From the sequence record OZ335964.1: a stretch of 64,000 nucleotides of DNA; one strand, given 5' to 3'. This document shows positions 1 to 47,693 of the stretch, one piece after another. Position numbers and translations under genes: made by a program. How positions within the stretch are numbered: the stretch's first letter is position 1; every line of letters starts with the position of its first letter. The notes under the pieces were generated by a model. That model had not been told where the DNA came from and searched no databases. It saw nothing but the letters and a program-made list of their open reading frames with translations. Origin of the DNA: a phage.

Positions 1-141
1 AATATTAGAAACGATAATACGGTTACTAATACTGCTAACGTTGCCAATACGCAGATCTATAACAATAATAGGACAGTGCAGATAACTAGACCTCAAACTA
101 ATACACCTTCTCCTGGACTATTACAAAAAGGAATAGTTTAA
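1..141 (+). CDS. 3' end of upstream late structural gene (partial; gp29-like baseplate hub/tape-measure by synteny)
   Basis: Open frame 1 from window edge to TAA at 139-141, immediately before gene 48; Asn/Thr-rich tail. Identity by T4 order 29-48-54 only. Confidence 0.35.
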   Translation, partial: NIRNDNTVTNTANVANTQIYNNNRTVQITRPQTNTPSPGLLQKGIV

Positions 142-142
142 T

Positions 143-1189
143 ATGAAAATTCAAATTTTGGATGATGCTAAAGATACTATTAATCGGGGTATCAAAGCAT
201 CTGCTGGGTTTACTAAAAAACCAGATAATACAACATTAACCGCACAATTTCCGTCTGAACGAGCTAGCGGTAATGATACTTCTGGTATATACATAAATGA
301 CCTTTATAATAACGGCTTGTTGTTTACTGCCTATGATTATAAAGAGCGTGTTACCGGTTCTCTTCGAAATTTCAGAAACGAACATAGTACATTGCGTGGA
401 TTTGGTGCACAAGGAAAGATAAGCGACAAGGAATTTTATCAAACATCTTTTGATCGCGAGGCTGTTGCTAATATCCTACTTCCTCGTAGTCAATCCGATG
501 TTGACTCGGTGAGTCATAAGTTTAATGATGTGGGTGAATCTCTCGTTACACGTGGTGGTGGCACTATTTCTGGTGCGTTGTCTGCTATGGCATCAACCGC
601 CGTATTTGGTGGTTTGGAGAGTTTAACGGGTGGTTATCTTGCCGATAAAAACGAACAGATTTATAATACCGCTCGTAGCATGTATGCTGGCGCAGATCCT
701 AGAACTAAAAACTATGTTTGGCACTTAACACCACGTAGTATTGAAGACCTGCGCAATATATTGATTATCTATGAAACTTTTGTAGAATTGTCTTATGGTT
801 CCAGCGGTATTTCTAGCACAGCAAAGCAATTAAAAGCGGAAGTTGATGCATGGTATAAAAAGACAATTCTTTCTAAGACGGTTCCAGAAGGAGCGGATAC
901 TTCCGGTACTTTGTTTGAGGGCATAACAGACTTTTTGACCAACGTGACCACGGTATCGAATCCGACTATATGGATGATCTCTAACTTTGGTAAACGTTCT
1001 GCTTATGAAGGTCGTAGCGACGTTTTCGGTCCAGCGCAAATTACTAACGTAAGGCTTGACAAATCACCAGACGGTAAATTTGGTGGTTTGGCTATTTCTC
1101 CTAACTTGCCTAGTACCTTCGTTCTGGAAGTATCGTTCAGGGAGATTCTTACTCTTTCTCGCGGTACTGTGTTTGGGAGTTCATTATAA
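143..1189 (+). CDS. 48: baseplate tail-tube cap protein gp48
   Basis: 348 aa, + strand, stop overlaps next start (TAATG); size and position match T4 gene 48 upstream of 54 and alt. Confidence 0.55.
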   Translation: MKIQILDDAKDTINRGIKASAGFTKKPDNTTLTAQFPSERASGNDTSGIYINDLYNNGLLFTAYDYKERVTGSLRNFRNEHSTLRGFGAQGKISDKEFYQTSFDREAVANILLPRSQSDVDSVSHKFNDVGESLVTRGGGTISGALSAMASTAVFGGLESLTGGYLADKNEQIYNTARSMYAGADPRTKNYVWHLTPRSIEDLRNILIIYETFVELSYGSSGISSTAKQLKAEVDAWYKKTILSKTVPEGADTSGTLFEGITDFLTNVTTVSNPTIWMISNFGKRSAYEGRSDVFGPAQITNVRLDKSPDGKFGGLAISPNLPSTFVLEVSFREILTLSRGTVFGSSL

Positions 1190-2120: not shown

Positions 2121-2148
2121 CAAAAAGGGGGCAAATGCCCCCTTTTTT
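2121..2148. terminator. bidirectional rho-independent terminator
   Basis: GGGGGC-AAAT-GCCCCC hairpin flanked by A-run and T-run between convergent genes 54 (+) and lipoprotein (-). Confidence 0.7.
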
Positions 2149-2653
2149 AATTTAGCAGATCTTCACACTGTTTACGCAGTTTATGACGATATTCTTTAGA
2201 TTGCAGTAGTTGTACTTTTTCATAATCCCCTATTTCATATGCATTTGAGAGATCATCCTGATATGCTGCCTCTGTACCAATTCGGCAAATGTCGTATTGA
2301 CGGGCTTTTTTCAAATCTAATTGTTCTCTCTCAAATTCTTTTCTTCGTTTTTCTTCTCGCTCTTGATACTTTTTATTTTGATATTCGATGTTGCTCTTAA
2401 TCTCTGCAATTCGTTGCTGTGCTTCTTGTGGCAATCCTACACGCAAAGCGGCTTCATCTTTTTTCTGTAACAGGTCGATAACACAGTATTCTGGTTCTTG
2501 ATAAGTCTGATTACCATGTGGATGGTAGTACCAACGAGCGCAATGTTCTTCGATTGACTGTATAGAAGCCGTAGCCGTTCGATAGTCTTTAATATTAGCA
2601 CAACCAGTTAACATGAATACAGCCGCAAGTCCGATTGGTTTAATCATTTTCAT
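2147..2653 (-). CDS. predicted lipoprotein, unknown function
   Basis: N-terminus MKMIKPIGLAAVFMLTGC has a signal peptide with lipobox L-T-G-C; charged coiled-coil-like C-terminal half; start overlaps upstream stop (ATGA). Confidence 0.6.
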   Translation of the reverse strand: MKMIKPIGLAAVFMLTGCANIKDYRTATASIQSIEEHCARWYYHPHGNQTYQEPEYCVIDLLQKKDEAALRVGLPQEAQQRIAEIKSNIEYQNKKYQEREEKRRKEFEREQLDLKKARQYDICRIGTEAAYQDDLSNAYEIGDYEKVQLLQSKEYRHKLRKQCEDLLN

Positions 2654-3474
2654 TTAGTCACCTCACCGAAAATTGTAAATTGTCTACGATTCTCATCGCC
2701 GAAAGATTCTACTACGTCGTTTACCTTTATGCAAGTCCCGCGCGGTAAAATTACTTCACATTCGCAAGGATTCCATGCAATTGACCCAACAACAAAACCT
2801 TTATGATCTTTTACGTCAATTACCCATGATACATTACAAGAATGTTGCATCTTTCCGGTCATTGATTCATATCGATTCTCACAATAAAGGCTAGTGCTAT
2901 TTGAAAGCCAGCCTCCAAAGATGATCGGTGTCATGCTGGTCGACACAAAGTTTTTAAAGGTAAATTCCTTATCTTCAATAATACGCTCTATTGTCTGAAT
3001 GTCAAGATGTTGACCGCGATAAAGAGTACCGTTTAACTTTTCGGTTTTATCCATGACACAATCCATCAAATCGACGATCTCTGATATCTCATCGGTCATG
3101 TCTTCTTCCCCTAAGAGAGCACCATTTACCCATTCGTATTGTTCAGACACATAATCACAGATTGCATTATATTCTGCTGGGGTTATGTTGTTATGTTTGT
3201 AATGTTTGAACACATTATCTCCAAAGTCTTCAGAGTGTACTTCATACATCACATTAATGATTTTCTTGACAAATCCATAATCTTGTGTCTCGCGCTCAAG
3301 GAAGCGGATAACATTCACGTAATCATCAAAGTTAATCTGATCGCTGATCATCTCAGTGATCATGTAACCATTAATCCCCTCAATGTCATATGTTTCAATA
3401 TAATTGTCCATACGTTCCATCATTGATTCGCGTGATTCTTCCGAAAGACGAAAATCCTGTAATTTCTTGAACAT
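2650..3474 (-). CDS. ADP-ribosyltransferase-fold protein (Alt/Mod-like paralogue)
   Basis: 274 aa with R-S-E triad in order: TLYRGQ (Arg), FVSTSMT (STS), CECEVILPRG (ExE); same motif set as Alt next door. Confidence 0.55.
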   Translation of the reverse strand: MFKKLQDFRLSEESRESMMERMDNYIETYDIEGINGYMITEMISDQINFDDYVNVIRFLERETQDYGFVKKIINVMYEVHSEDFGDNVFKHYKHNNITPAEYNAICDYVSEQYEWVNGALLGEEDMTDEISEIVDLMDCVMDKTEKLNGTLYRGQHLDIQTIERIIEDKEFTFKNFVSTSMTPIIFGGWLSNSTSLYCENRYESMTGKMQHSCNVSWVIDVKDHKGFVVGSIAWNPCECEVILPRGTCIKVNDVVESFGDENRRQFTIFGEVTK

Positions 3475-3493
3475 TTTAAACCTCCCATATAAC

Positions 3494-3528
3494 AGAAAAC
3501 GGGGCTAGTATAAAACTAGTCCCCGTTT
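3494..3528 (-). terminator. rho-independent terminator downstream of alt
   Basis: 11-bp perfect stem ACGGGGCTAGT/ACTAGTCCCCGT followed on minus strand by T-rich tract. Confidence 0.6.
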
Positions 3529-3552
3529 GAGTCAACCATTATTTCTTAAAAA

Positions 3553-5604
3553 TTACATTTTAAATTTATCTGGCATAGCGTCTACAGATACCAGATCAGC
3601 GATAAGCTGACGTAGAGTTGCCTTATCTGCTTTCTTACGTTCGGTTTTAGCTTCGGTAATAAAGCTGGAGAAAGACAGGTCAGAAGCAGGTTTAACAACA
3701 CCTTCACGGATGAATGCATCACCGTCCGCGATCATCTCGCCAGATTCTTGTAATGCTGCCAGTTCATTTTTGTTCATAATATGTGCCTCAATGTAATAAG
3801 TTTCTTGTGAATCCGTCGATGCCGTAGCACGAGTTACCGTATCAAAGGATAACACAACACCGCGAGGAAGTAAAATCTCGCATTCTTTGTAAGCAAATGC
3901 TTTGTTACCTACTGGCAATACAGGGATGTTTTCCGCGCCAGCAATGGAGAAAGCAACATTAGCGCCACCTTCACCGCGAGATCCAGCCATAGAATCTACA
4001 CCAGCAACGGCACTAGCCACGTTTGCATTCCAGCCACCAAAAATGTTAGGTGCAAGGGAAGTGCTCACATAGTTTTTAAAGTAAAACGCTTTTTGCTTAC
4101 GTGCAGTTTCCCACATTTGAGACCGGAAGTCCATACCACGATACAGAATAGTACCAGGATCAAGTTTAACGCCATAGTTAGAGAAGGCATTATCCAGTGC
4201 ATCGCACATCTTGACCAATTCTTCTGGATCTGCGATGCCTTCAAACTCTTCCAGCTTACGGTCGGTTAGGAAGTTGTTCATATTGATGTATGCTGCATCG
4301 GCATATTCGCTCAACACAAAACCTTCCGCGCCAGGCAGATCAAGATCAATATCTGCCATCATTTCACCCATGTTGCTAGCAATTGCTTCAAACATACCGG
4401 AAGCAACATTACGTAGGGCATCGGTTTTAATCTGGGTGATATGACTACGCAGCATTTCAGCTTTTACATCTGCTGGCATAGACTGGTCTACTCGATCCAT
4501 TGCCAGTGCGGTGATCTTGTTTTCGAATACTTCCTCGCTCATGATTTCTTTTAAGCGTTTGATTGATGCTGCGATAACTTCCGCAGACAACGGATCATAT
4601 TGATCCTGAACTTTTACCAGTTCACTTACTGCGTATTTTGCATCGGCTTCGCTTTCAAAAATAGTACGCATGAAACCATAGCGAGTGATAATATCACTTG
4701 TCCAGTCATTCAGAGAACGGGCGGTTGAACGTTCTAAGGCTTGACGATCAATCAGAGTATTAAACTGTTTCTTAGGTTCGGCTTCGGTGATATCTTCTTC
4801 CGGTTTAAGATTAATTTTTTCTGGATGATTCACATAGTCGCTGTTATAGGTCGCTTGAGTTTTCAGCATTTCTTCTTTAGTCAAACGAGACTTAGCCGCT
4901 ACACGTTGTTCTGCTTCCGCGTTTCGTTCTTCTTCTGATGCAAGGCTAGCCGCATACGCTTCATCTTTAGTCAGAGATTCACCAGTAGCTTTAGATACCC
5001 AGCGATCACCTAAATCACTTTCTACTTTAGTGAACAGGGAATCATCAAGTTTAATCCCTTTAATCTTATCAATCGACATCCCGCGACGCTTGACAACAAC
5101 TAAAGCGATCTTTTTGCTGGTCATTACTTCCTGCTGGAATACTTCAAACTTAGGAGTACGACGCACCAAACGCTCTATAACGCGCTTAACCAGTTCGGTC
5201 TTACCTTTCATGCGGGATACGTTAAAACGGAACATAACAGCGTCTAATTGCGCTTTACGGGCTGTTTCCATAACCACATCAAAAGCACTTGCCATAACTG
5301 CAATCGGGTTATCGCCTAGACCATTTTTAAGCTGTACAATACGACCGCTTTTGTTCATCTCGCACAGTACAACATGTGCGGTCTTGTCACCCATACGAAT
5401 GATTTTAGGTGTTTTGTTGGTGAAGTTACAAAGACGGACAATCACATCTTTATCGCGTGTCTGTACTGCAAAAAGCTGTTTAGGGTTCTGCTTAGGCTTT
5501 AAGCACTGTACCGGAGCAATACTACCAAAGTTTTCTTCCTCTTCCGTCAACAGCCATTTCTCGAAAGATTCAATCATTAGATCGTCGATTTCTAAGTTAA
5601 ACAT
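3553..5604 (-). CDS. alt: ADP-ribosyltransferase Alt (packaged, modifies host RNA polymerase in T4)
   Basis: 683 aa (T4 Alt 682 aa); C-terminal ART motifs ILYRGM, YVSTSLA, YKECEILLPRG; synteny between 54 and 30. Confidence 0.8.
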   Translation of the reverse strand: MFNLEIDDLMIESFEKWLLTEEEENFGSIAPVQCLKPKQNPKQLFAVQTRDKDVIVRLCNFTNKTPKIIRMGDKTAHVVLCEMNKSGRIVQLKNGLGDNPIAVMASAFDVVMETARKAQLDAVMFRFNVSRMKGKTELVKRVIERLVRRTPKFEVFQQEVMTSKKIALVVVKRRGMSIDKIKGIKLDDSLFTKVESDLGDRWVSKATGESLTKDEAYAASLASEEERNAEAEQRVAAKSRLTKEEMLKTQATYNSDYVNHPEKINLKPEEDITEAEPKKQFNTLIDRQALERSTARSLNDWTSDIITRYGFMRTIFESEADAKYAVSELVKVQDQYDPLSAEVIAASIKRLKEIMSEEVFENKITALAMDRVDQSMPADVKAEMLRSHITQIKTDALRNVASGMFEAIASNMGEMMADIDLDLPGAEGFVLSEYADAAYINMNNFLTDRKLEEFEGIADPEELVKMCDALDNAFSNYGVKLDPGTILYRGMDFRSQMWETARKQKAFYFKNYVSTSLAPNIFGGWNANVASAVAGVDSMAGSRGEGGANVAFSIAGAENIPVLPVGNKAFAYKECEILLPRGVVLSFDTVTRATASTDSQETYYIEAHIMNKNELAALQESGEMIADGDAFIREGVVKPASDLSFSSFITEAKTERKKADKATLRQLIADLVSVDAMPDKFKM

Positions 5605-8381: not shown

Positions 8382-8855
8382 TTATTTGCACCAAATTCGA
8401 ATTATTTCGTCTCGTTCAAATTTCTGCCAGATTACTCGGTCACCCGCTGCCATGATACTGACAAATCCAGTTGTGTTTCCTGTGTACTTGCTTTTAGTCT
8501 CGGCATCATATTCAAAGAATGGTGCTTTAAGATCGCTAAACTCATCTTTTCCCACAAACTTCATAACATGACGATGCGCGTAATATTCGCTTCTTAGTGT
8601 TGTTGTGATAGTTCCGTCATTATTTGATTTCAGATGTAATTCTGCATCTTCATAAAGACTTGCATCTCGTTGTTTACTTTCAATACCGTCGTTATATGTT
8701 GATTTCGTTGCACTCCAACATTGATAAGTTTTATCAACATTTTCGATCTTTTCCTGTGTCATATCAAAAAGCGGTGCAACCTTTTTCTTAGCCGCGTGTG
8801 CTACGTTGGTCATGGACAGTGCTGCAACAACCACAATAGCAATAATCTTCTTCAT
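8382..8855 (-). CDS. secreted/periplasmic protein, unknown function
   Basis: 157 aa; N-terminal signal peptide MKKIIAIVVVAALSMTNVAHA. Confidence 0.6.
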   Translation of the reverse strand: MKKIIAIVVVAALSMTNVAHAAKKKVAPLFDMTQEKIENVDKTYQCWSATKSTYNDGIESKQRDASLYEDAELHLKSNNDGTITTTLRSEYYAHRHVMKFVGKDEFSDLKAPFFEYDAETKSKYTGNTTGFVSIMAAGDRVIWQKFERDEIIRIWCK

Positions 8856-8919: not shown

Positions 8920-9201
8920 TTATTCGTGATTAGTTTCGATGTTATACATTTTGCACCAGTTCAGCCAATCGCCCAGATCTTGATAGTTGATGCTTTTATC
9001 TGCTGCCATCGTTTTGGTCTTGATACCCATATGTGCGTTATGAGTAAGCATTTTTACAGTGAACTCAATTTTATCGCCTTTAGCTTTAACATCAACCAGT
9101 TTGGTCCACTGGCTACCAGCGCCGCGAATGTTCATACCAACGATGTTTCCGATGTATGCTTCTTTGTTTTTCAGGATTTCGGTTGCTTTGATGAATTTCA
9201 T
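8920..9201 (-). CDS. hypothetical protein
   Basis: 93 aa ORF with RBS and promoter cassette upstream. Confidence 0.5.
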   Translation of the reverse strand: MKFIKATEILKNKEAYIGNIVGMNIRGAGSQWTKLVDVKAKGDKIEFTVKMLTHNAHMGIKTKTMAADKSINYQDLGDWLNWCKMYNIETNHE

Positions 9202-9234
9202 TTTTGATTCTCCAGTTCGTTTCGGTATGGGTGT

Positions 9235-9263
9235 ATTATGCTATGTTCTTACTTTGGTGTCAA
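9235..9263 (-). promoter_or_regulatory. sigma70-type early promoter cassette
   Basis: TTGACA - 17 nt - CATAAT on minus strand, followed by conserved leader and RBS. Confidence 0.5.
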
Positions 9264-9270
9264 CAACTTT

Positions 9271-9540
9271 TTAGATATTTTCAGAAATAAATTTTAAAAC
9301 TTGACGTAAATGTTTCTCATCTTTGATAGTCGCCGGAAGTTCTTCTTTTACTTCCTGTGCAAGATAGATATTTCCGTTCCAAGTGAAAGATCCGTCTTCG
9401 TTTACGCGATAGCTGAACATCCACTCGCAATCATTTTCGATTTCATATACACACAGAAGGGTGTAATCGTTAAAGCTATTGATTTCAAGGTCGAAGCCGT
9501 GACGTTTTGCAAAGTTGGTAGTGGTTTTAGTCAGTGCCAT
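9271..9540 (-). CDS. hypothetical protein
   Basis: 89 aa; shares near-identical leader/RBS with the 8047..8298 gene. Confidence 0.5.
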   Translation of the reverse strand: MALTKTTTNFAKRHGFDLEINSFNDYTLLCVYEIENDCEWMFSYRVNEDGSFTWNGNIYLAQEVKEELPATIKDEKHLRQVLKFISENI

Positions 9541-9580
9541 TGTTTGATTCTCCTAAGTGGTATCTCGTTTCGATGGGTGT

Positions 9581-9609
9581 ATTATGCTATACACAGGATC
9601 TGGTGTCAA
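9581..9609 (-). promoter_or_regulatory. sigma70-type early promoter cassette
   Basis: TTGACA - 17 nt - CATAAT on minus strand. Confidence 0.5.
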
Positions 9610-9633
9610 TGCCTTTTTTAAAAATTTTGGCAA

Positions 9634-9659
9634 TAAAAAAGCCGACACTAAGGTCGGCT
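9634..9659 (-). terminator. rho-independent terminator
   Basis: GCCGAC-ACTAAG-GTCGGC hairpin followed on minus strand by T-run. Confidence 0.6.
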
Positions 9660-9666
9660 AATAAAA

Positions 9667-9975
9667 TCAACGAGATAGATAATCGTTTTGCGCGATCTGG
9701 TCGGCGTATGCTGGTGTTATGTCAATCGCCAACACTTTAACGCGTGCTTTCTTGCGACCTGGGTTTTCTCGTAACCAGTGCTCATGACCGTGCACATTTT
9801 TATATTTTGATGCGGTTTCGAAGGTACGGATCGGACCTGGATAATCTGCGTAAAGGATCTCTAGGTCTTCGGTGATGTAAAAATATACATCATAATTACT
9901 GTTCTCTAGTTTAAGCAGAGAATTGCGAAATTGTGGTAAATTCTCGCGGGTAAATTCAACTACAAGATTTTTCAT
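9667..9975 (-). CDS. HxHW/AVDV paralogue family member 1
   Basis: 102 aa from MKNLVVEF (RBS GAGGA upstream); track ORF's 49-aa extension runs through a terminator hairpin; motifs YFYITEDLEI, HGHEHW, VLAIDI. Confidence 0.55.
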   Translation of the reverse strand: MKNLVVEFTRENLPQFRNSLLKLENSNYDVYFYITEDLEILYADYPGPIRTFETASKYKNVHGHEHWLRENPGRKKARVKVLAIDITPAYADQIAQNDYLSR

Positions 9976-11869: not shown

Positions 11870-11902
11870 TTTTGATTCTCCGTTTGTTGTCTTGATGGGA
11901 GT

Positions 11903-11931
11903 ATCTTACTACTCCCTTTAATCATTGTCAA
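11903..11931 (-). promoter_or_regulatory. early promoter cassette
   Basis: TTGACA - 17 nt - TAAGAT; -10 inside GGGAGTA..TACTCCC hairpin. Confidence 0.5.
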
Positions 11932-18085: not shown

Positions 18086-18516
18086 CGTTCCTCATTAAGT
18101 TCTTTGCGATAATAACACATGATCAACTTACTTTCAAGTGTATATCTCTTAATATCAGCCAACCAAACTCTAAATTTTTGGGAGTCCTCCCACGACATAG
18201 AAACTCTAGGTTTACCGTCTATTGTATCCACTTTCAGGTTAATGTCAACTTTTTCTATTGGTGCTGGTAGTGGAGGATGTAATTTCGGTTCCTGTGAATA
18301 ATGGTCCATTGTACACGAAGAAAGAGCAAATACAATAGGCACAGCGAAGACATGGATTATGGCGGTCTGAAAATTCTTATGTGCTTTCTTAAACATCCAG
18401 TGTATCACGAAAATTGAAAACACCATAAGGATAATAATGCTTGCACCTATCCCCAGATAATCAACCAGATTAAAATTGTTTATCTGCTCTTGCGTAGGCA
18501 ATATTTCTATGCTCAT
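18064..18516 (-). CDS. membrane protein, unknown function
   Basis: 150 aa with two hydrophobic helices (IGASIIILMVFSIFVIHW, IIHVFAVPIVFAL); exact start uncertain. Confidence 0.45.
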   Translation of the reverse strand: MSIEILPTQEQINNFNLVDYLGIGASIIILMVFSIFVIHWMFKKAHKNFQTAIIHVFAVPIVFALSSCTMDHYSQEPKLHPPLPAPIEKVDINLKVDTIDGKPRVSMSWEDSQKFRVWLADIKRYTLESKLIMCYYRKELNEERCKPKEK

Positions 18517-18848
18517 TTAGTAGCCTCCTTTAATTCTTCGGTAAACTCCTTAAATGAATCATTAAGCTGTTTCTCTACCAACTTGGGTTTTTGTGCTACT
18601 ACATAGCCTCGTGTAGCGTCTTTCATTGCTTTGTTTTGTTCTTCTGCAAACTTAGTTCTTATTCCGTACATCTCCTTTTGTAGTGAGTCTACGACCTTCA
18701 TCTTTTCATCTGTCTTTTTCTTATACTCTGTAAATTCCTGATTCAGACGATCTACCTCCTTTTTATTTTCCCACCACATATTGCCACCTACCCCCAGCAA
18801 TACAGATATGATAACAATGTATATCAGCTTTGACATATTACCCCCCAA
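18513..18848 (-). CDS. membrane-anchored coiled-coil protein
   Basis: 111 aa; N-terminal TM segment LIYIVIISVLLGVGG then charged helical region. Confidence 0.5.
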   Translation of the reverse strand: MGGNMSKLIYIVIISVLLGVGGNMWWENKKEVDRLNQEFTEYKKKTDEKMKVVDSLQKEMYGIRTKFAEEQNKAMKDATRGYVVAQKPKLVEKQLNDSFKEFTEELKEATK

Positions 18849-20897: not shown

Positions 20898-20938
20898 CTT
20901 GATACTCCTTAGTAAGTTAGTTTCGTTTCGATGGGGGT

Positions 20939-20967
20939 ATCTTACTACCCCCGTTTCAGGCTGTCAA
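20939..20967 (-). promoter_or_regulatory. early promoter cassette
   Basis: TTGACA - 17 nt - TAAGAT; -10 in loop of GGGGGTA..TACCCCC hairpin; conserved leader CATCGAAACGAAAC. Confidence 0.5.
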
Positions 20968-21186: not shown

Positions 21187-21219
21187 TTTGATTCTCCTGT
21201 GTTTCGTTTCGATGGGGGT

Positions 21220-21248
21220 ATCTTACTACCCCCGCTATTCAGTGTCAA
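21220..21248 (-). promoter_or_regulatory. early promoter cassette
   Basis: TTGACA - 17 nt - TAAGAT; near-identical to the 20939..20967 copy. Confidence 0.5.
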
Positions 21249-22051: not shown

Positions 22052-23208
22052 AGATATTTCCCGAATCGGTTGTAGTCATCGTCTGTTAAATCGGTATTAA
22101 CCTGAGACACCAGATACATAATCTCTACTTCCTGCGCTGCATTCTGCACTTCGTCAGAGTTTAACCACTTACGCATCCACGGTAAAGGATGACGACGAAC
22201 ACTAAACGGGCTTTTCAGTCCGGCAGCACGCATACGGGAATCTGCCAGGTATTCTACATAGGTTTTCAGAATTTCCGGTGACAGGTTAGGAATTGCCCCC
22301 ATTGCGAATAGGTGGTCTACCCATTCTTTTTCTTGCTCGACAACATCCAGAAAGATTTTCGTTGCTTCGTCTTCAAGTTCTTCCGCAATCTGTTTCCACT
22401 CATCACCATCAGCCCCCGTTTGCCATTGACGAATAATGTATTGTGTGCCTTTTAAGTGAAGTTGTTCATCACGCGCAATAAATTTCATGATCTTCGCGTT
22501 ACCTTCCAGTAAACCACGTTCGGCAAAGCTGAAAGTACATGCAAAGGACACATAAAAACGGATTGCTTCCAAAGCATTGACGCAGTGTGCACACAGATAA
22601 ATCGAAGCCATCAGATCTCGTTTTGTATCTTCAAAAAATCTTCTTGCATCATCTAATGCTGTCGGGTCGTCTCGTTCTTCCCAATAGCGGAGATCTTCTT
22701 TTGCGTTCTCATACTTACGAATCCAATAGAGAACATCATCATAATATTGCCCGATAGATTCCGCTCGCTTCATGATAGCAGGGTTATCGATGATCTGGTC
22801 AAACTCACTAGCCGGATCAATAAAACAGTTACGCATAATGTGAGTATAACTGCGGCTATGAATCGTTTCGCTGAATGTCCATGTTTGCAACCATGTATCA
22901 AGAGTCGGATCAGATACAATTGGACCAAATGCTGCGGACGGTGCGCGACCTTGAATAGAATCAAGTAATGTCTGATACTTCAAGTTTTCGGTAAAGAAAC
23001 GCTTTTCAACGTCACCCATATTAAGATATTGAATGCGGTCAGTTGCAAGCGAGATCTCTTCTGGACGCCAGAAAAATGACAATTGCTTTTCGATCAGTTC
23101 TTCAAATACTTGATGACGCTGAATATCATAGCGAGCGATACCCAACCCACTACCCAGAAACATCGGTTCGTTCATAATATCAACATGTTCGCGGTTAAAT
23201 ACGCTCAT
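22048..23208 (-). CDS. nrdB: ribonucleotide reductase small subunit
   Basis: 386 aa (T4 NrdB 388 aa); uninterrupted, no intron; synteny with nrdA. Confidence 0.9.
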   Translation of the reverse strand: MSVFNREHVDIMNEPMFLGSGLGIARYDIQRHQVFEELIEKQLSFFWRPEEISLATDRIQYLNMGDVEKRFFTENLKYQTLLDSIQGRAPSAAFGPIVSDPTLDTWLQTWTFSETIHSRSYTHIMRNCFIDPASEFDQIIDNPAIMKRAESIGQYYDDVLYWIRKYENAKEDLRYWEERDDPTALDDARRFFEDTKRDLMASIYLCAHCVNALEAIRFYVSFACTFSFAERGLLEGNAKIMKFIARDEQLHLKGTQYIIRQWQTGADGDEWKQIAEELEDEATKIFLDVVEQEKEWVDHLFAMGAIPNLSPEILKTYVEYLADSRMRAAGLKSPFSVRRHPLPWMRKWLNSDEVQNAAQEVEIMYLVSQVNTDLTDDDYNRFGKYL

Positions 23209-40418: not shown

Positions 40419-43049
40419 ATGGCAGATTTAAGCAGAATCCAATTTAAACGCACTAGCACTAAAGGCCGTCGACCTGATGCTGGTACGATGAATCCGGGGG
40501 AATTGGCAATCAATCTTGCGGATCAATATCTTCTTACTAAAAATGATTCCGGTGCTATTATCAATTTAAGTTGTCCTCCGGTTTATGACCGTGATGTTAC
40601 AATGGCGGGTAAAGTTAAAGGAAATAATTATATTTTAAGTAAAACCGCTAACTATCTGGAAGATCAGACAGCGCGAGATCTTAACTACTTTGGTGCTTTC
40701 CGTACCAATGGTCTTGATGGTTTTCTCGAACTCACGCTAAACGTTCCTCATTCTTCTGGTGTTCAGCATGGTCGAGGATTTACTTTCCAGTATGGACACA
40801 CAGGAAACCGTGTAGAAACTTATGGTTATAATAAAGAAGGACAAAAAGCATTTAGTTATAAAATGTATCACGAAGGTGATAAACCAACTCCAGGAGAATT
40901 GAACGTCTATAGCAAACAAGAAATTGACCGTATGTTTGTGAAAAACGTTAAAATGTCTGTTCCTTCCGGTGACGCAACTCGTGGTTACTTTAAGATCGCG
41001 ACCGCAATGATTCCGCAGAATGGTCGAATGGCATTTTTACGAATTTACGGCGGAAACGGATATAATGTTAACTCCTACGACCAGGTTGATTTCCTTGAAA
41101 TTGTGATTCGCGGTGGTAATAATAACCCTAAAGGTGTTAGTATTGCTGCATATCGTCGAAATTCTTTGAACGTACATGAGGTATTTGCAATTAATACTTC
41201 CGGTGATAACTATGACATTTATGTTAACTATGGTCGTTACACCGATAACGTTATTGTCGAGTTTGGAAAAACTGTTGATGTTGCATTGACTGTTCATGAT
41301 GTTCCTGAATTTTCTGCGACTAAACCAGCAACCGGAACTAAATTTGATGCTCGTGTTATTACGATGTTCAACACCGAAAACAAAGCCGGAACGTTGATGT
41401 TTGATAATAACTCACAAGCAACCTATGATATTGTGAGCCTTAATAACGTACCAGACAACAATAAAAAATATATGCGTAAATTCCGCAGTCGTGCGGCGGA
41501 AACAATATGGCATGAAACTGTTCAAGGTGATGTGTATCGTTTGGCTACTGGTTCTACCGACCAAAAAGAAGTATTAAAAATTGTTGGTAGTGATGGTTTA
41601 TTTGTCGATAGACTTCATCTGCAAGGCAATAACGCGATTCGTATGTGGCGTCCTACTGGTCGTAGTAACTATTTTGAATATATGGATCAGCGAGATGGTG
41701 CTAATAAGCGTCAAGGTTGGTTTGGCTTTGGTTCTATAGATACTAACGATTTTCAATGGTATAGTGACGAAGGTAAAAACTTTGTTAAGCTAGAAGCAAG
41801 TGGTCAAGTATCTTTAAGTACTGGTGCGACCAAAATTGTATACACTAATGGTCAATATGTAGCTGCCAATTCTGATGCATACCGTATGATCTTTGGTAAT
41901 TACGGTGCATTCTGGCGTAATGACGGCACTAAAGTTTATCTTCTTTCTACGGCTGAAAATGATAAATTTGGTGGCTGGAATACCTACCGACCGTTTATCT
42001 ATAATTTAGTATCTGGAAACGTTGATTTGGGTGGTGATACCACAGCCTCCGCATTGACCTTAGAAGGTGCAAGCAAAACCGCTCGATTTGGTGGTCATGT
42101 TTATACAGGCGGTAACTTACATAATACAGGTCAGTATATAACTATGGAGGCCGGACTTGCTGGTCAATCAATGGATTATATTCGTTTTAACCATTGGGGT
42201 AGTAGCAGCACCGGACGAAATAACATCTTGTATGTTGAAGACAGCAAAGGTCGTCATTTTTCTACCGAACGTTCTTCCACAGGAGCACTTAAAGCTGACT
42301 TTTTAGGTGAACTCGAAGTTGGTGGTAAGCTGACATGGGGTAAGGGTACAGCTAAATCCTCGTTTAACTTACGAGTGTGGGGCAATGATTCCCGTAAACA
42401 AGTGTTTGAATGTGCGGACGAAAGCGGTTGGCATTTCTATACCCAGCGTGCGGGTGGTCCTGGAACTAATGTAATTGAGTTTAACGTAAACGGTAGGATT
42501 ACTGTTCCTGAATTATATGTTGGTACTGCTGCATCAATATCTAAAATCAATGGTGCTTTTGGTGTCGGTACTACTAATGGATTAGGTGGTAGTTCAATTA
42601 CTCTGGGTGATAGTGATACTGGCTTTAAGCAAAATGGCGATGGCAACCTTGATGTTTATGCTAACAACGTTGCAGTAATGCGTTTTACTTCTGGTGCGAT
42701 TACCGCAAACAAACAATTGAACGTATCTGGTCGTGTTAACCCGTCTGATTATGGAAACTTTGATGGTCGTTATATCAAAAAGACCAGAGGATGGACTAGA
42801 ATATGGACGGGTACACTAGGTGGGAATACTCAGACCGGAACATTGCCTCAAGACCTTCGCTACCGTAACGTGTGGATCGTAATGGCTGATGGATTTAAAA
42901 ACTTCTTCCGTTTTGGTGATGACGGTACTTATTATCTGTCTGGTTATGGAGGTTGGATTAAAATGCAACTTCACTCTAGTGGTAAGATCTTTAAAAATAT
43001 TCAAGACCATTATTGCGTTCCTCGCGAAATTTGGGTTGAAAACGAATAA
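40419..43049 (+). CDS. 37: long tail fibre distal subunit / receptor-binding protein gp37
   Basis: 876 aa; N-terminus MADL; Gly-rich C-terminal region; immediately upstream of holin t with no gene 38-sized ORF between. Confidence 0.65.
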   Translation: MADLSRIQFKRTSTKGRRPDAGTMNPGELAINLADQYLLTKNDSGAIINLSCPPVYDRDVTMAGKVKGNNYILSKTANYLEDQTARDLNYFGAFRTNGLDGFLELTLNVPHSSGVQHGRGFTFQYGHTGNRVETYGYNKEGQKAFSYKMYHEGDKPTPGELNVYSKQEIDRMFVKNVKMSVPSGDATRGYFKIATAMIPQNGRMAFLRIYGGNGYNVNSYDQVDFLEIVIRGGNNNPKGVSIAAYRRNSLNVHEVFAINTSGDNYDIYVNYGRYTDNVIVEFGKTVDVALTVHDVPEFSATKPATGTKFDARVITMFNTENKAGTLMFDNNSQATYDIVSLNNVPDNNKKYMRKFRSRAAETIWHETVQGDVYRLATGSTDQKEVLKIVGSDGLFVDRLHLQGNNAIRMWRPTGRSNYFEYMDQRDGANKRQGWFGFGSIDTNDFQWYSDEGKNFVKLEASGQVSLSTGATKIVYTNGQYVAANSDAYRMIFGNYGAFWRNDGTKVYLLSTAENDKFGGWNTYRPFIYNLVSGNVDLGGDTTASALTLEGASKTARFGGHVYTGGNLHNTGQYITMEAGLAGQSMDYIRFNHWGSSSTGRNNILYVEDSKGRHFSTERSSTGALKADFLGELEVGGKLTWGKGTAKSSFNLRVWGNDSRKQVFECADESGWHFYTQRAGGPGTNVIEFNVNGRITVPELYVGTAASISKINGAFGVGTTNGLGGSSITLGDSDTGFKQNGDGNLDVYANNVAVMRFTSGAITANKQLNVSGRVNPSDYGNFDGRYIKKTRGWTRIWTGTLGGNTQTGTLPQDLRYRNVWIVMADGFKNFFRFGDDGTYYLSGYGGWIKMQLHSSGKIFKNIQDHYCVPREIWVENE

Positions 43050-43364: not shown

Positions 43365-44021
43365 ATGCAAGTTTCTGAAAAAGAGAAAGACTTTGCTATC
43401 TCAAATGTCCTGCGCGCTATTTTCACAACTAAAAGCACGGAGTTGCTCGTACTTCGTGTTTTTGCTGCCGTCGTGTTGTCCATATTAGCATTTGTCGTTT
43501 ATAGCAAAAACGAGTTATTTGCCTTGTATAAAGAGACTCGTTATGAGACTTATGCTCACGTTCTCCAGGTAGAGAAAGACCGCAATTTTGATAATGCAGC
43601 ACAGGAGCAGTTACAGATAGTTCATGTGTCGGCTGATGCCGATTTTTCTGCTGTTTTTAGTTTTCGTCCGAAAAACCTAAATTATTTTGTTGATTTGGTG
43701 GCATATGAAGGAAAGCTACCGCATACAATCGATGAAAAAAATTTAGGCGGATTTCCTATCAATAAAACGAGTGAAGAATATCGTAGGCATCTTTTAGGTA
43801 AATCCTATTTTACCGATAAAGATTTCCAGTATATTCCGTCGAGGGAGAAAAAATTAGAGAATATCGATATAGGGTTTATGTATTCTTGTCCTATATTCAA
43901 TCTCGATAATGTCTATTCTGGTAGTATCGCCATTGCATGGAAGAATAAACCGGATATTGACATTGAGAATTTAGATACTCTTTGCAATCAATCTGCCAGA
44001 ATCCTCGGAAGGATTAGATAA
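43365..44021 (+). CDS. t: holin T
   Basis: 218 aa (T4 T 218 aa); LEQLQIVHVSADADFSAVFSFRPKNLNYFVDLVAYEGKLP and MYSCPIFNLDNVYSG match T4 holin almost residue-for-residue. Confidence 0.85.
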   Translation: MQVSEKEKDFAISNVLRAIFTTKSTELLVLRVFAAVVLSILAFVVYSKNELFALYKETRYETYAHVLQVEKDRNFDNAAQEQLQIVHVSADADFSAVFSFRPKNLNYFVDLVAYEGKLPHTIDEKNLGGFPINKTSEEYRRHLLGKSYFTDKDFQYIPSREKKLENIDIGFMYSCPIFNLDNVYSGSIAIAWKNKPDIDIENLDTLCNQSARILGRIR

Positions 44022-45572: not shown

Positions 45573-45854
45573 TTATTTTCGGTTGTACTTCTGCCACTTT
45601 CGGTAATACTGCTTGTAAACCTGTTTTGCGTTTTCACCATCTTTACTATACATGTTATCTACCATCAAGTCAATAAGACCTTCCGGTGTCTGGTAGTTCC
45701 CCGCTCGAATAAGTTCTTTAATTAAAGTGTCCTGATGATCTTTGTATACTACGTTAATGATGGTCTTTTCTGCTTTCTTCGTCCCGATCATCCGGTGATT
45801 AGCTTTCATCGCATCCCACCAATCTTTTGTGATCTTCATGTTATTGAATTGCAT
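45573..45854 (-). CDS. hypothetical protein
   Basis: 93 aa basic protein. Confidence 0.45.
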   Translation of the reverse strand: MQFNNMKITKDWWDAMKANHRMIGTKKAEKTIINVVYKDHQDTLIKELIRAGNYQTPEGLIDLMVDNMYSKDGENAKQVYKQYYRKWQKYNRK

Positions 45855-45865
45855 AATTTAACCTC

Positions 45866-46624
45866 TTACTTGCACACGTATTGATCTACATCAATTGCGC
45901 CACCGAATGTAGGATGACGTTTTTCAAATCGAATAGTTCCGTCGTTTGGTTCGAAAACGGAGTATTCATATAGATCTTTCTTGCCAACATTCTTATAAAA
46001 CCCGCCTTTAGTCATAACGGTTTCTTGTACGTTTGCTTTGTGTACGTTGTATTCGTCAATGTATACAAAATCAACCATCTTCCCATTTTTAATGGTTACT
46101 TTAAGATCTCCTGGTTGGTTTCCATATTTTGCATACAGTGGAGCTTCTTTAATTTTGGTGGAAATTCCATCTTTCATACTCCACTCATAACGAACGGTGC
46201 ATTGATAGGTAAAAGTTTCGACCTTCGGTTCTTCCACCACTTTTTCTTCCTGTTTCGGTTGTTCTTCGTCAACCTTCACGGAAGTCTCTGAATCGCTTTC
46301 TGACGCGGTTTCTTCTTTAGGTAATACATTCATCAAGTTTTGGATTTGAGCGTTGTATACAGCCTCCAGTGGCTGAATCTGCCCGATATTGATCATTGTA
46401 TCACGAACAGTTTTATTCCAGTTGCGTTGCTCTTGTTTCAGAGACGGATCAATCTTAACAGCCTTAACATATACTTCATGAAGTTTCGAATCCAGTGCGG
46501 AGATTGACTCATTAGCACAAATAAACTTCTCTGATTTGGTAGTGGCTTTAGCGCAATCAAAGGACGCAGCATTAGCACCGAAAGCAGTAGCAGAAAGAAC
46601 GATAGCAGCGATAATGTTTTTCAT
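45866..46624 (-). CDS. secreted protein with LprI/DUF1311-like N-terminal domain
   Basis: 252 aa from MKNIIAAIVLSATAFGANA (signal peptide); ASFDCAKATTKSEKFIC...LDSKL...QRNWNKTVRD pattern; track ORF's extension overlaps the promoter. Confidence 0.5.
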   Translation of the reverse strand: MKNIIAAIVLSATAFGANAASFDCAKATTKSEKFICANESISALDSKLHEVYVKAVKIDPSLKQEQRNWNKTVRDTMINIGQIQPLEAVYNAQIQNLMNVLPKEETASESDSETSVKVDEEQPKQEEKVVEEPKVETFTYQCTVRYEWSMKDGISTKIKEAPLYAKYGNQPGDLKVTIKNGKMVDFVYIDEYNVHKANVQETVMTKGGFYKNVGKKDLYEYSVFEPNDGTIRFEKRHPTFGGAIDVDQYVCK

Positions 46625-46658
46625 AATATATTCCTCAGTGTTTTGTCTTGATGGGAGT

Positions 46659-46687
46659 ATCTTACTACTCCCCTGTTCTGGTGTCAA
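46659..46687 (-). promoter_or_regulatory. early promoter cassette
   Basis: TTGACA - 17 nt - TAAGAT; -10 within GGGAGTA..TACTCCC hairpin. Confidence 0.5.
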
Positions 46688-47133: not shown

Positions 47134-47172
47134 GTGATTCTCCTTTCGTTTGGTATGGGAGTATGTTACTAC

Positions 47173-47201
47173 TCCCATTTCTTTACGTCAACAACTATTT
47201 T
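47173..47201 (-). promoter_or_regulatory. early promoter cassette
   Basis: TTGACG - 17 nt - TAACAT; GGGAGTAGTAACATACTCCC hairpin spans -10. Confidence 0.4.
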
Positions 47202-47633: not shown

Positions 47634-47664
47634 CTTTGATTCTCCTTTTGTTTGATATGGGAGT

Positions 47665-47693
47665 ATATTACTACTCCCATTATTCACTGTCAA
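47665..47693 (-). promoter_or_regulatory. early promoter cassette
   Basis: TTGACA - 17 nt - TAATAT; GGGAGTAGTAATATACTCCC hairpin spans -10. Confidence 0.45.

Follow-up and report, generated by a model that had tools for sequence, protein, structure and literature searches.

A Conserved DUF1311 Head and an Exchangeable Tail in a Predicted Periplasmic Protein of RB49-Type Phages: A Possible Exclusion or Immunity Factor

The Locus and Its Expression Signals

The gene described here lies on the minus strand of a 64,000-nucleotide stretch of phage DNA (sequence record OZ335964.1; the whole stretch analysed is hereafter called the window), which shows 93-98% DNA identity to the RB49-like coliphages of the genus Krischvirus (T4-type Straboviridae) and has Shigella phage JK32 as its closest match, at 98.4% DNA identity. 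It is located among small early open reading frames (ORFs) of the same strand, between the topoisomerase gene 52 and the holin gene t, the latter at 43365..44021 and 1.8 kb away. The start codon agrees with the annotation of its RB49 counterpart, RB49ORF260c, which is recorded as a 'hypothetical protein', and the full-length gene is kept in 57 RB49-like phage records. The product carries an export signal followed by two modules, a conserved head of the DUF1311 type and a tail that moves as a cassette among phages that otherwise differ little (coordinates in Table 1).

A sigma-70 promoter is found 35 nt 5' of the ATG, with a promoter scan score of 10/12, inside a promoter-early stem-loop (PeSL), an element reported for RB49 and phi1 (PMC2839356). 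Its -35 box TTGACA (46687..46682) and -10 box TAAGAT (46664..46659) are separated by a spacer of 17, and the -10 box is located in the loop of the inverted repeat GGGAGTA/TACTCCC. The motif TTGACA-N9-GGGAGTAGTAAGATACTCCC is present in 6 copies in the window, compared with 0 expected by chance. Because the sigma-70 promoter lies within a PeSL, the gene is very probably an early gene at the head of its own transcription unit. Three of the six copies fall within ~1 kb 5' of the gene, marking off small ORFan units.

Domain Organization of the Protein

The cleavable signal peptide proposed in the initial annotation is borne out both by a rule-based scan and by the reading of the cleavage site between MKNIIAAIVLSATAFGANA and ASFDC, in which position 2 is a lysine, the hydrophobic core is free of charged residues, and -3/-1 read A-x-A. 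Neither a lipobox cysteine at +1 nor an L-x-x-C could be found in the cleavage region FGANA/ASFDC, from which we infer a soluble periplasmic protein rather than a lipoprotein. The mature start AASFDC is kept in 61 distinct viral homologues.

The head that follows, putatively helical, matches the Pfam profile PF07007 (LprI) over residues 24-76 with an E value of 3e-5 and a score of 24.8 bits, above the gathering threshold of 22, confirming the DUF1311-like domain of the initial annotation; the mature head alone scores 26.2 bits. The same profile also matches four more distant phage homologues, those of Klebsiella phage F48, Aeromonas phage AS-sw, the lambdoid phage ev099, and SSU5. All five of the diverse phage heads compared match, with a best E value of 7.6e-8, as do 9 of 18 family representatives. 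C24 and C36 (Cys-x11-Cys) as well as Q66-R67-x-W69 are invariant in the phage head alignment. The cysteine pair and the Q-R-x-W pattern had been pointed out correctly, whereas the spacing from W to R had been given as three residues and is four in the head motif Q66-R67-N-W69-N-K-T-V-R74-D75. The alignment spans only model positions 1-71 of 106, and the head has two cysteines, the second pair typical of DUF1311 (four conserved cysteines in all) being absent from it; more distant viral family members do carry a K-C...C-L pair, as seen in the family consensus. In PHROGs, the whole protein corresponds to phrog_14799 and the head to phrog_4675, both annotated as of unknown function. The DUF1311 observation is thus real but already known, since a weak match (E 0.2) was given in 2006 (PMC1524935) and the UniProt name of the RB49 protein Q7Y3G7 is 'Lysozyme inhibitor LprI-like N-terminal domain-containing protein'.

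The earlier account dealt with residues 1-100 alone and overlooked the linker and barrel that make up residues 104-252. Half of the linker residues (50%) are charged, and the predicted local distance difference test (pLDDT) score stays below 50 over residues 104-131. An AlphaFold2 model built on an alignment of 15 homologues presents the tail as an 8-9-stranded antiparallel barrel with a pLDDT of ~90, in which the first strand contains C142 and the final one C251, and a disulfide between the two is predicted to close the barrel. A membrane-embedded barrel is ruled out by the composition: 28% of the residues are charged, the strands are short, and there is no C-terminal aromatic residue. A Foldseek search of the tail model against the PDB gave nothing below E 0.01, and a profile search of PDB sequences with the tail gave no match. 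A phmmer search of 1.84 billion cluster representatives found no sequence relatives of the tail beyond alleles of the same gene; it returned one such allele (P0010) and two repeat proteins, which are regarded as spurious because the matches are short and lie inside repeat units.

Exchange of the Tail as a Cassette

Comparison of homologues drawn from a 5.8-billion-protein collection and from phage records showed a striking disparity between the two modules: pairwise identity has a median of 98% in the head (minimum 86%) and of 29% in the tail (minimum 15%). The tails form at least 8 classes at a 70% identity threshold, which fall into two super-groups. Homology between the RB49-type and JSE-type super-groups was considered and rejected, as profile comparison detects none (hhalign 2%) and the predicted topology alone is held in common. 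The JSE-type tail is predicted as eight strands with a cysteine at each end (pLDDT 65-80), so that, to judge from the models, the type of scaffold seems to be kept while the tail sequence is replaced. Among isolated phages, the RB49 tail allele occurs in 45 records (96-100% identity) and is identical to that of the window; the GEC-3S/phi1 allele (36%) occurs in 12 records, and JSE carries a third.

The nucleotide sequences of the window and JSE share 96-97% identity as far as codon ~135 and once more from the stop codon on, the tail alone being different, and the same pattern of tail-only replacement is seen with GEC-3S. In every comparison made (JSE, GEC-3S, and the prophage copies described below), ungapped identity per 30 nt falls from 90-100% to 10-50% at 390-405 nt after the ATG. 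The cassette's 5' recombination boundary coincides with the end of the linker, and its 3' homology arm is formed by the first ~21 codons of the downstream gene at 45573..45854. Codon differences in the head relative to RB49, JSE, and GEC-3S amount to 4-8 synonymous and 0 non-synonymous changes. Phages that otherwise hardly differ, at 94-98% DNA identity, exchange the tail as a cassette, and selection on the head is strongly purifying.

Copies in Prophages and the Wider Family

The gene is present in 26 of 5426 complete E. coli genomes, where it is annotated as 'lysozyme inhibitor LprI family protein', and a blastn search set for distant matches, meant to find further chromosomal relatives in E. 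coli, yielded nothing beyond these 26 prophage copies. The prophage copies share 95-97% DNA identity with the phage gene from the ribosome-binding site to codon ~135 and continue with other tail alleles. In the two genomes inspected (NZ_CP028733 and NZ_CP026723), the gene is the last of a prophage inserted in hicB and stands beside the junction; in strain H2, the copy that was scanned, a strong terminator lies 3' of it. IMG/VR prophage contigs of about 35 kb likewise stop just past the gene. Immediately past the stop codon of the gene, the initial ~21 codons of the gene that lies downstream in Krischvirus are retained in the prophage, after which the sequence diverges up to a stop codon. Because this truncated Krischvirus neighbour stands beside the prophage copy, the arrangement is most simply explained by movement of the gene from a virulent RB49-type phage into a temperate phage. 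Its capture and retention as a single gene shows that no other Krischvirus gene is needed for the protein to be of use. The sharp intragenic exchange of the tail, the purifying selection on the head, and the capture by prophages are the marks of a self-acting gene under conflict-driven selection.

An IMG/VR scan with the head alignment extended the family to 80 loci with 61 distinct proteins of 136-394 amino acids, every one of which has a signal peptide, a head of the form AASFDC...E..IC...Q-R-x-W, a low-complexity linker, and one tail. On this same head, 18 mutually unrelated tails are found. Pfam recognizes one of the 18 tail groups as a tRNA_anti-like OB (oligonucleotide/oligosaccharide-binding) fold and another as DUF4431; the rest are unmatched, and no known lysozyme inhibitor appears among them. 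Among the IMG/VR proteins are one with a linker of Pro-Gln repeats at locus L063 and one with a long hydrophobic stretch in the tail at locus L071. The homologue of the lambdoid phage ev099 is located between an ea22-like gene and xis/int, and that of Klebsiella phage F48 between the primase gene 61 and the dCTPase gene 56.

Lysis Genes, Spackle, and Other Features of the Window

The gene 5 protein (gp5) of RB49 carries a phage-lysozyme domain, and RB49-type phages also have the lysis-inhibition genes rI and t. The 'putative endolysin' of RB49, RB49ORF102c (22719..23108 of one RB49 extract), is a 129-aa protein with a weak Pfam match of the D-Ala-D-Ala-carboxypeptidase type and is not a T4 e-type lysozyme. 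A 107-aa ORF of the window at 18513..18836 on the minus strand, far from t, has an N-terminal hydrophobic segment and matches phrog_739 (Rz-like spanin).

A tblastn search with the T4 spackle protein (Sp, gp61.3) against the RB49-type genome (RB49 1-125 kb and 152-164 kb plus the window) gave nothing credible. The interval between genes 41 and 61 of RB49 contains no exported ORF, dc1 and dc2 being without a signal peptide. The lack of an Sp homologue together with the presence of the gp5 lysozyme leaves room for an Sp-like function in RB49-type phages. Two further exported ORFs of the window, at 2147..2653 and 8382..8855, are alternative envelope or exclusion candidates in this Sp-less phage. 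Klebsiella phage F48 (vB_Kpn_F48, MG746602) has an Sp homologue at the syntenic site, with 47% identity to T4 Sp over 40 aa.

The long tail fibre's distal subunit (gp37-like) ends in 250 aa that have no close Krischvirus match, the best being phage Cognac with 60% over the first 146 aa. The rest of the tip is ~33% identical over 88% of its length to the gp17 tips of T7, T3, and phiA1122, and tip residues 25-169 share 50% identity with the tail fibres of Escherichia phages whose records measure ~31-38 kb, such as pro147 and P2_AC1. This suggests that a novel receptor-binding tip has been grafted onto the T4-type fibre in the window phage.

Table 1. Features of the studied gene, of the window, and of related loci (window coordinates unless another record is named)
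Feature	Coordinates	Strand	Basis or remarks
Gene under study	45866..46624	-	ATG 46624..46622, stop 45868..45866, 252 codons; ORF reading
Signal peptide, residues 1-19 (MKNIIAAIVLSATAFGANA)	46568..46624	-	Signal peptidase I type; sequence reading and rule-based scan
DUF1311 / LprI_N head, putatively helical, residues 20-103	46316..46567	-	C24, C36, Q66-R67-x-W69
Linker, residues 104-135	46220..46315	-	Acidic, Lys/Glu/Pro-rich, disordered; pLDDT and composition
Exchangeable tail, residues 136-252	45869..46219	-	Soluble 8-stranded beta-barrel; predicted structure
Ribosome-binding site GAGGAA	46631..46636	-	6 nt 5' of ATG; sequence reading
PeSL of the studied gene	46653..46687	-	Promoter scan and motif match
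PeSL copies	11897..11931, 20933..20967, 21214..21248, 46653..46687, 47157..47191, 47659..47693	all -	Motif search of the window
Downstream gene (RB49ORF259c homologue)	45573..45854	-	phrog_15915, 93 aa, without signal peptide; sequence comparison
gp37-like long tail-fibre distal subunit	40419..43049	+	Tip 42297..43046
Predicted lipoprotein, 168 aa (...FMLTG/C)	2147..2653	-	phrog_16112, family of unknown function; exported-ORF scan
157-aa protein with signal peptide	8382..8855	-	No Pfam or PHROG family; exported-ORF scan
Prophage copies of the gene	9001..9843 of NZ_CP028733 locus; 8995..9837 of NZ_CP026723 locus		Terminal cargo beside disrupted hicB
RB49 gene 5	3151..4953 of another RB49 extract		Only recognised lysozyme domain in the RB49 parts read
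F48 spackle homologue	140..421 of MG746602 locus		93 aa, signal peptide, two Cys; recorded as 'hypothetical protein', just 3' of helicase gene 41

Possible Function and Alternative Explanations

Collectively, the protein could serve in exclusion or immunity as an early periplasmic factor that acts by itself, with a conserved head and a swapped tail that sets specificity, a proposal that we hold tentatively, as one somewhat short of probable. It would be made early and exported through the Sec pathway as a soluble periplasmic protein whose two modules are held on a flexible acidic linker, and its tail is swapped by recombination that reaches from the conserved linker to the beginning of the downstream gene. 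Acting alone and needing no other RB49-type gene, it would protect the envelope of the infected or lysogenic cell, in the manner of superinfection exclusion or immunity, by binding a protein of the attacker that is exposed in the periplasm. The likeliest target would be a peptidoglycan-cleaving enzyme, either the tail lysozyme of a superinfecting phage or a muramidase delivered by a type VI secretion system (T6SS). The head would then provide the common function, and the tail would determine which attacker is recognised.

This proposal draws on the early promoter, the export signal, and the autonomy evident from the transfer to prophages, and on a signature expected of an arms race, namely a constant head with polymorphic tails in otherwise near-identical phages. 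It also draws on the gene content of RB49-type phages, which have a gp5 lysozyme and rI/t and no detectable Sp, and on the DUF1311 family, which has been linked experimentally to the antagonism or modulation of periplasmic cell-wall enzymes. The DUF1311 protein Etsi4 of enterohaemorrhagic E. coli rescues the periplasmic toxicity of the T6SS effector Etse4 (PMC12981562), and the Salmonella protein ScwA raises the levels of MltD and lyses cells when overproduced (PMC7933661). In Pantoea, orphan immunity genes of the DUF1311 family stand beside lysozyme-like effectors, and DUF1311-type genes flank WHIX effectors. By analogy with these cases, the DUF1311 domain is plausibly a binder of murein-cleaving enzymes.

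Several observations weigh against the proposal. LprI of M. tuberculosis consists of a DUF1311 and an MliC domain, of which the MliC domain suffices for lysozyme resistance; no experiment supports a role of the DUF1311 domain in lysozyme resistance, and ScwA, a periplasmic DUF1311 protein, confers none (PMC7933661). As lysozyme inhibition by LprI is ascribed to its MliC domain and ScwA proved negative, the studied protein cannot take over the name 'lysozyme inhibitor'. The membership in DUF1311 on which the initial annotation relied holds, whereas the inhibitor function that it attached to this membership rests on the family name. The tail is not an MliC domain either, as it has no Pfam match at E<=10, a value of 1.1% in hhalign against an MliC/PliC alignment, and none of the signature motifs. 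Searches of PADLOC and NCBIfam gave no meaningful match to the protein, and the other exported ORFs of the window could equally supply the missing exclusion functions. Moreover, no covariation is seen between the tail allele and the phage's own gp5, whose lysozyme domain is 98-100% identical in all Krischvirus regardless of the tail allele; this near-invariance rules out tracking of gp5 and therefore indicates that the tail is not tuned to it. Tracking of the tail-fibre tip is likewise ruled out, given that the window phage combines a unique gp37 tip with a tail identical to that of RB49. Klebsiella phage F48 combines an Sp homologue with a DUF1311-head protein, so that the two are not mutually exclusive in T4-type phages and the DUF1311-head family is not simply a substitute for Sp.

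The last of these points bears directly on the spackle analogy raised in the initial annotation. In its strict form, in which the protein would bind and inhibit the gp5 tail lysozyme of superinfecting T4-type phages, its own kind included, so that the tail tube fails to pass the murein and their DNA is excluded, the analogy is unlikely. The protein is early and periplasmic by prediction, as spackle requires, RB49-type phages combine a gp5 lysozyme domain with the lack of an Sp homologue, a constant head is paired with a constant gp5 lysozyme domain across the genus, and the DUF1311 family is linked to muramidase antagonism. However, a variable tail is left unexplained if the target is an invariant gp5, the effect of LprI on lysozyme is ascribed to MliC and ScwA is negative, F48 retains both proteins, and the gene is kept by a temperate prophage that is not of the T4 type. 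The early promoter and the lack of a detectable Sp thus speak for the earlier suggestion, and the gp5 comparison and F48 against it. The broader idea of a periplasmic protective factor is partly supported by T6SS antagonists of the Etsi4 type, although the argument from which it had been derived was poorly founded.

Such antagonists point to orphan immunity as another explanation, according to which a lysogenic-conversion or host-preservation gene would counter T6SS effectors or bacteriocins that act in the periplasm, its tails being fitted to polymorphic toxins. DUF1311 immunity proteins of T6SS have been shown or predicted in E. coli O157, in Pantoea, and beside WHIX effectors, the constant head with its 18 tail groups resembles the diversity of polymorphic toxins and their immunity proteins, and the gene sits at the end of a prophage. 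We nevertheless consider this explanation quite improbable, in view of the location of the gene in the early region of a strictly lytic phage, whose minutes-long infection gains little from T6SS immunity. No effector-like gene is adjacent at any of the phage or prophage loci viewed, and the known immunity proteins are described as DUF1311/LprI only, with no mention of a barrel. Only a small chance is given to modulation of host or phage murein enzymes, with the head acting on lytic transglycosylases as ScwA does on MltD, or of holin/antiholin lysis timing, by which the protein would adjust the integrity of the cell wall in the infected cell instead of excluding anything. The effects of ScwA on MltD and on cell lysis, the distance of only 1.8 kb to gene t, and the peptidase-type endolysin used by RB49-type phages would fit such a role, but a polymorphic tail is unexpected where the host enzymes and the T holin are conserved, RB49 already has rI, and the gene functions away from its original setting, in an unrelated prophage.

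The lipoproteins Llp of T5 and Cor mask the receptor FhuA and offer a model in which the tail would attach to the outer-membrane receptor used by the phage itself, either on its periplasmic face or at an assembly intermediate, so as to block superinfection and shield progeny from cell debris. A tail of many forms could keep pace with changes of receptor, genes 37 and t are nearby, and the structural neighbours of the barrel in BFVD include phage 'lipoproteins' with similar barrels. The studied protein is not a lipoprotein, however, and its barrel has the composition of one that is not membrane-embedded; in the window phage, a gp37 tip unlike that of other Krischvirus is accompanied by a tail 100% identical to that of RB49. 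Receptor masking is accordingly the least probable of the explanations considered, with a very slim chance of being correct.

Returning to an exclusion or immunity factor with a swapped tail, the proposal can be extended to the IMG/VR family. It is possible, though rather doubtful, that several phage lineages share a modular, polymorphic, periplasmic defence protein in which a DUF1311 head is combined with interchangeable attacker-binding tails. These lineages would comprise lytic T4-type phages that infect E. coli, Klebsiella, and Aeromonas, together with lambdoid phages, plasmid prophages of the SSU5 type, and further viral contigs. The head would be an anchor, an oligomeriser, or a generic antagonist, and each tail would recognise a different incoming attacker, either a tail enzyme of a rival phage or a T6SS toxin. 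The barrel would be the binding domain used by Krischvirus, recombination would take place in the linker, and the whole gene would pass between virulent and temperate phages. If true, the family would represent a counterpart of polymorphic immunity systems that is encoded by phages, and it would add a new class to the superinfection-exclusion factors.

Apart from the question of function, the analysis defines a widespread phage and prophage family by its signal peptide, DUF1311 head, linker, and at least 18 unrelated tails. The database name 'lysozyme inhibitor' of this family rests on the wrong domain, which is a warning against the transfer of LprI function by name. For superinfection exclusion in RB49-type phages, the studied gene is one of a handful encoding exported early proteins that could fill the Sp gap, and it offers a cheap, well-defined target for exclusion and immunity assays.

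Comparison with Known Systems

LprI of M. tuberculosis (Rv1541c) has the same order of modules as the studied protein, with an export signal, a DUF1311 head, and a small barrel. The studied protein differs from it in the tail, which does not contain an MliC domain (PF09864), in the absence of a lipobox, and in the head, where the second cysteine pair and the final third of the Pfam model are missing. The nearest known systems also include the barrel-type lysozyme inhibitors MliC/PliC, ACP, and PhiA. The tail is modelled as an 8-stranded antiparallel barrel, the fold of MliC and PliC, but the SxSGAxY loop and the (F/W)WxKGxEA motif of the solved sequences are absent from it, and no equivalent of these motifs is conserved across the tail alleles. 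ScwA is likewise a soluble periplasmic DUF1311 protein with disulfides; in contrast to the studied protein, it is chromosomal, has its DUF1311 domain at the C-terminus, and regulates MltD. The DUF1311 immunity proteins of T6SS are periplasmic proteins that counter cell-wall-directed toxins, as the studied protein may do. They are described only as DUF1311/LprI-domain proteins and stand beside effector genes in T6SS islands, whereas the studied protein is encoded by phages, bears a polymorphic barrel as an addition, and has no effector beside its gene.

T4 Sp is an early, signal-peptide-bearing, cysteine-containing periplasmic protein of a T4-type phage, all of which is also predicted for the studied protein. 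The two differ in size and architecture, Sp having 97 aa and the studied protein 252 aa in two domains, and in gene position, which is between 41 and 61 for Sp and between 52 and t for the studied gene. A BLASTP comparison of the two gave E 0.64 over 8 residues and hence no similarity. The PeSL-flanked ORFan cassettes of RB49 and phi1 (Arbiol et al. 2010) resemble the present locus in that the studied gene heads a PeSL early unit in a hyperplastic region. PeSL shuffling, however, moves whole ORFs and therefore does not account for the exchange in the studied gene, which is intragenic, extends from the linker to the next gene, and replaces the tail only.

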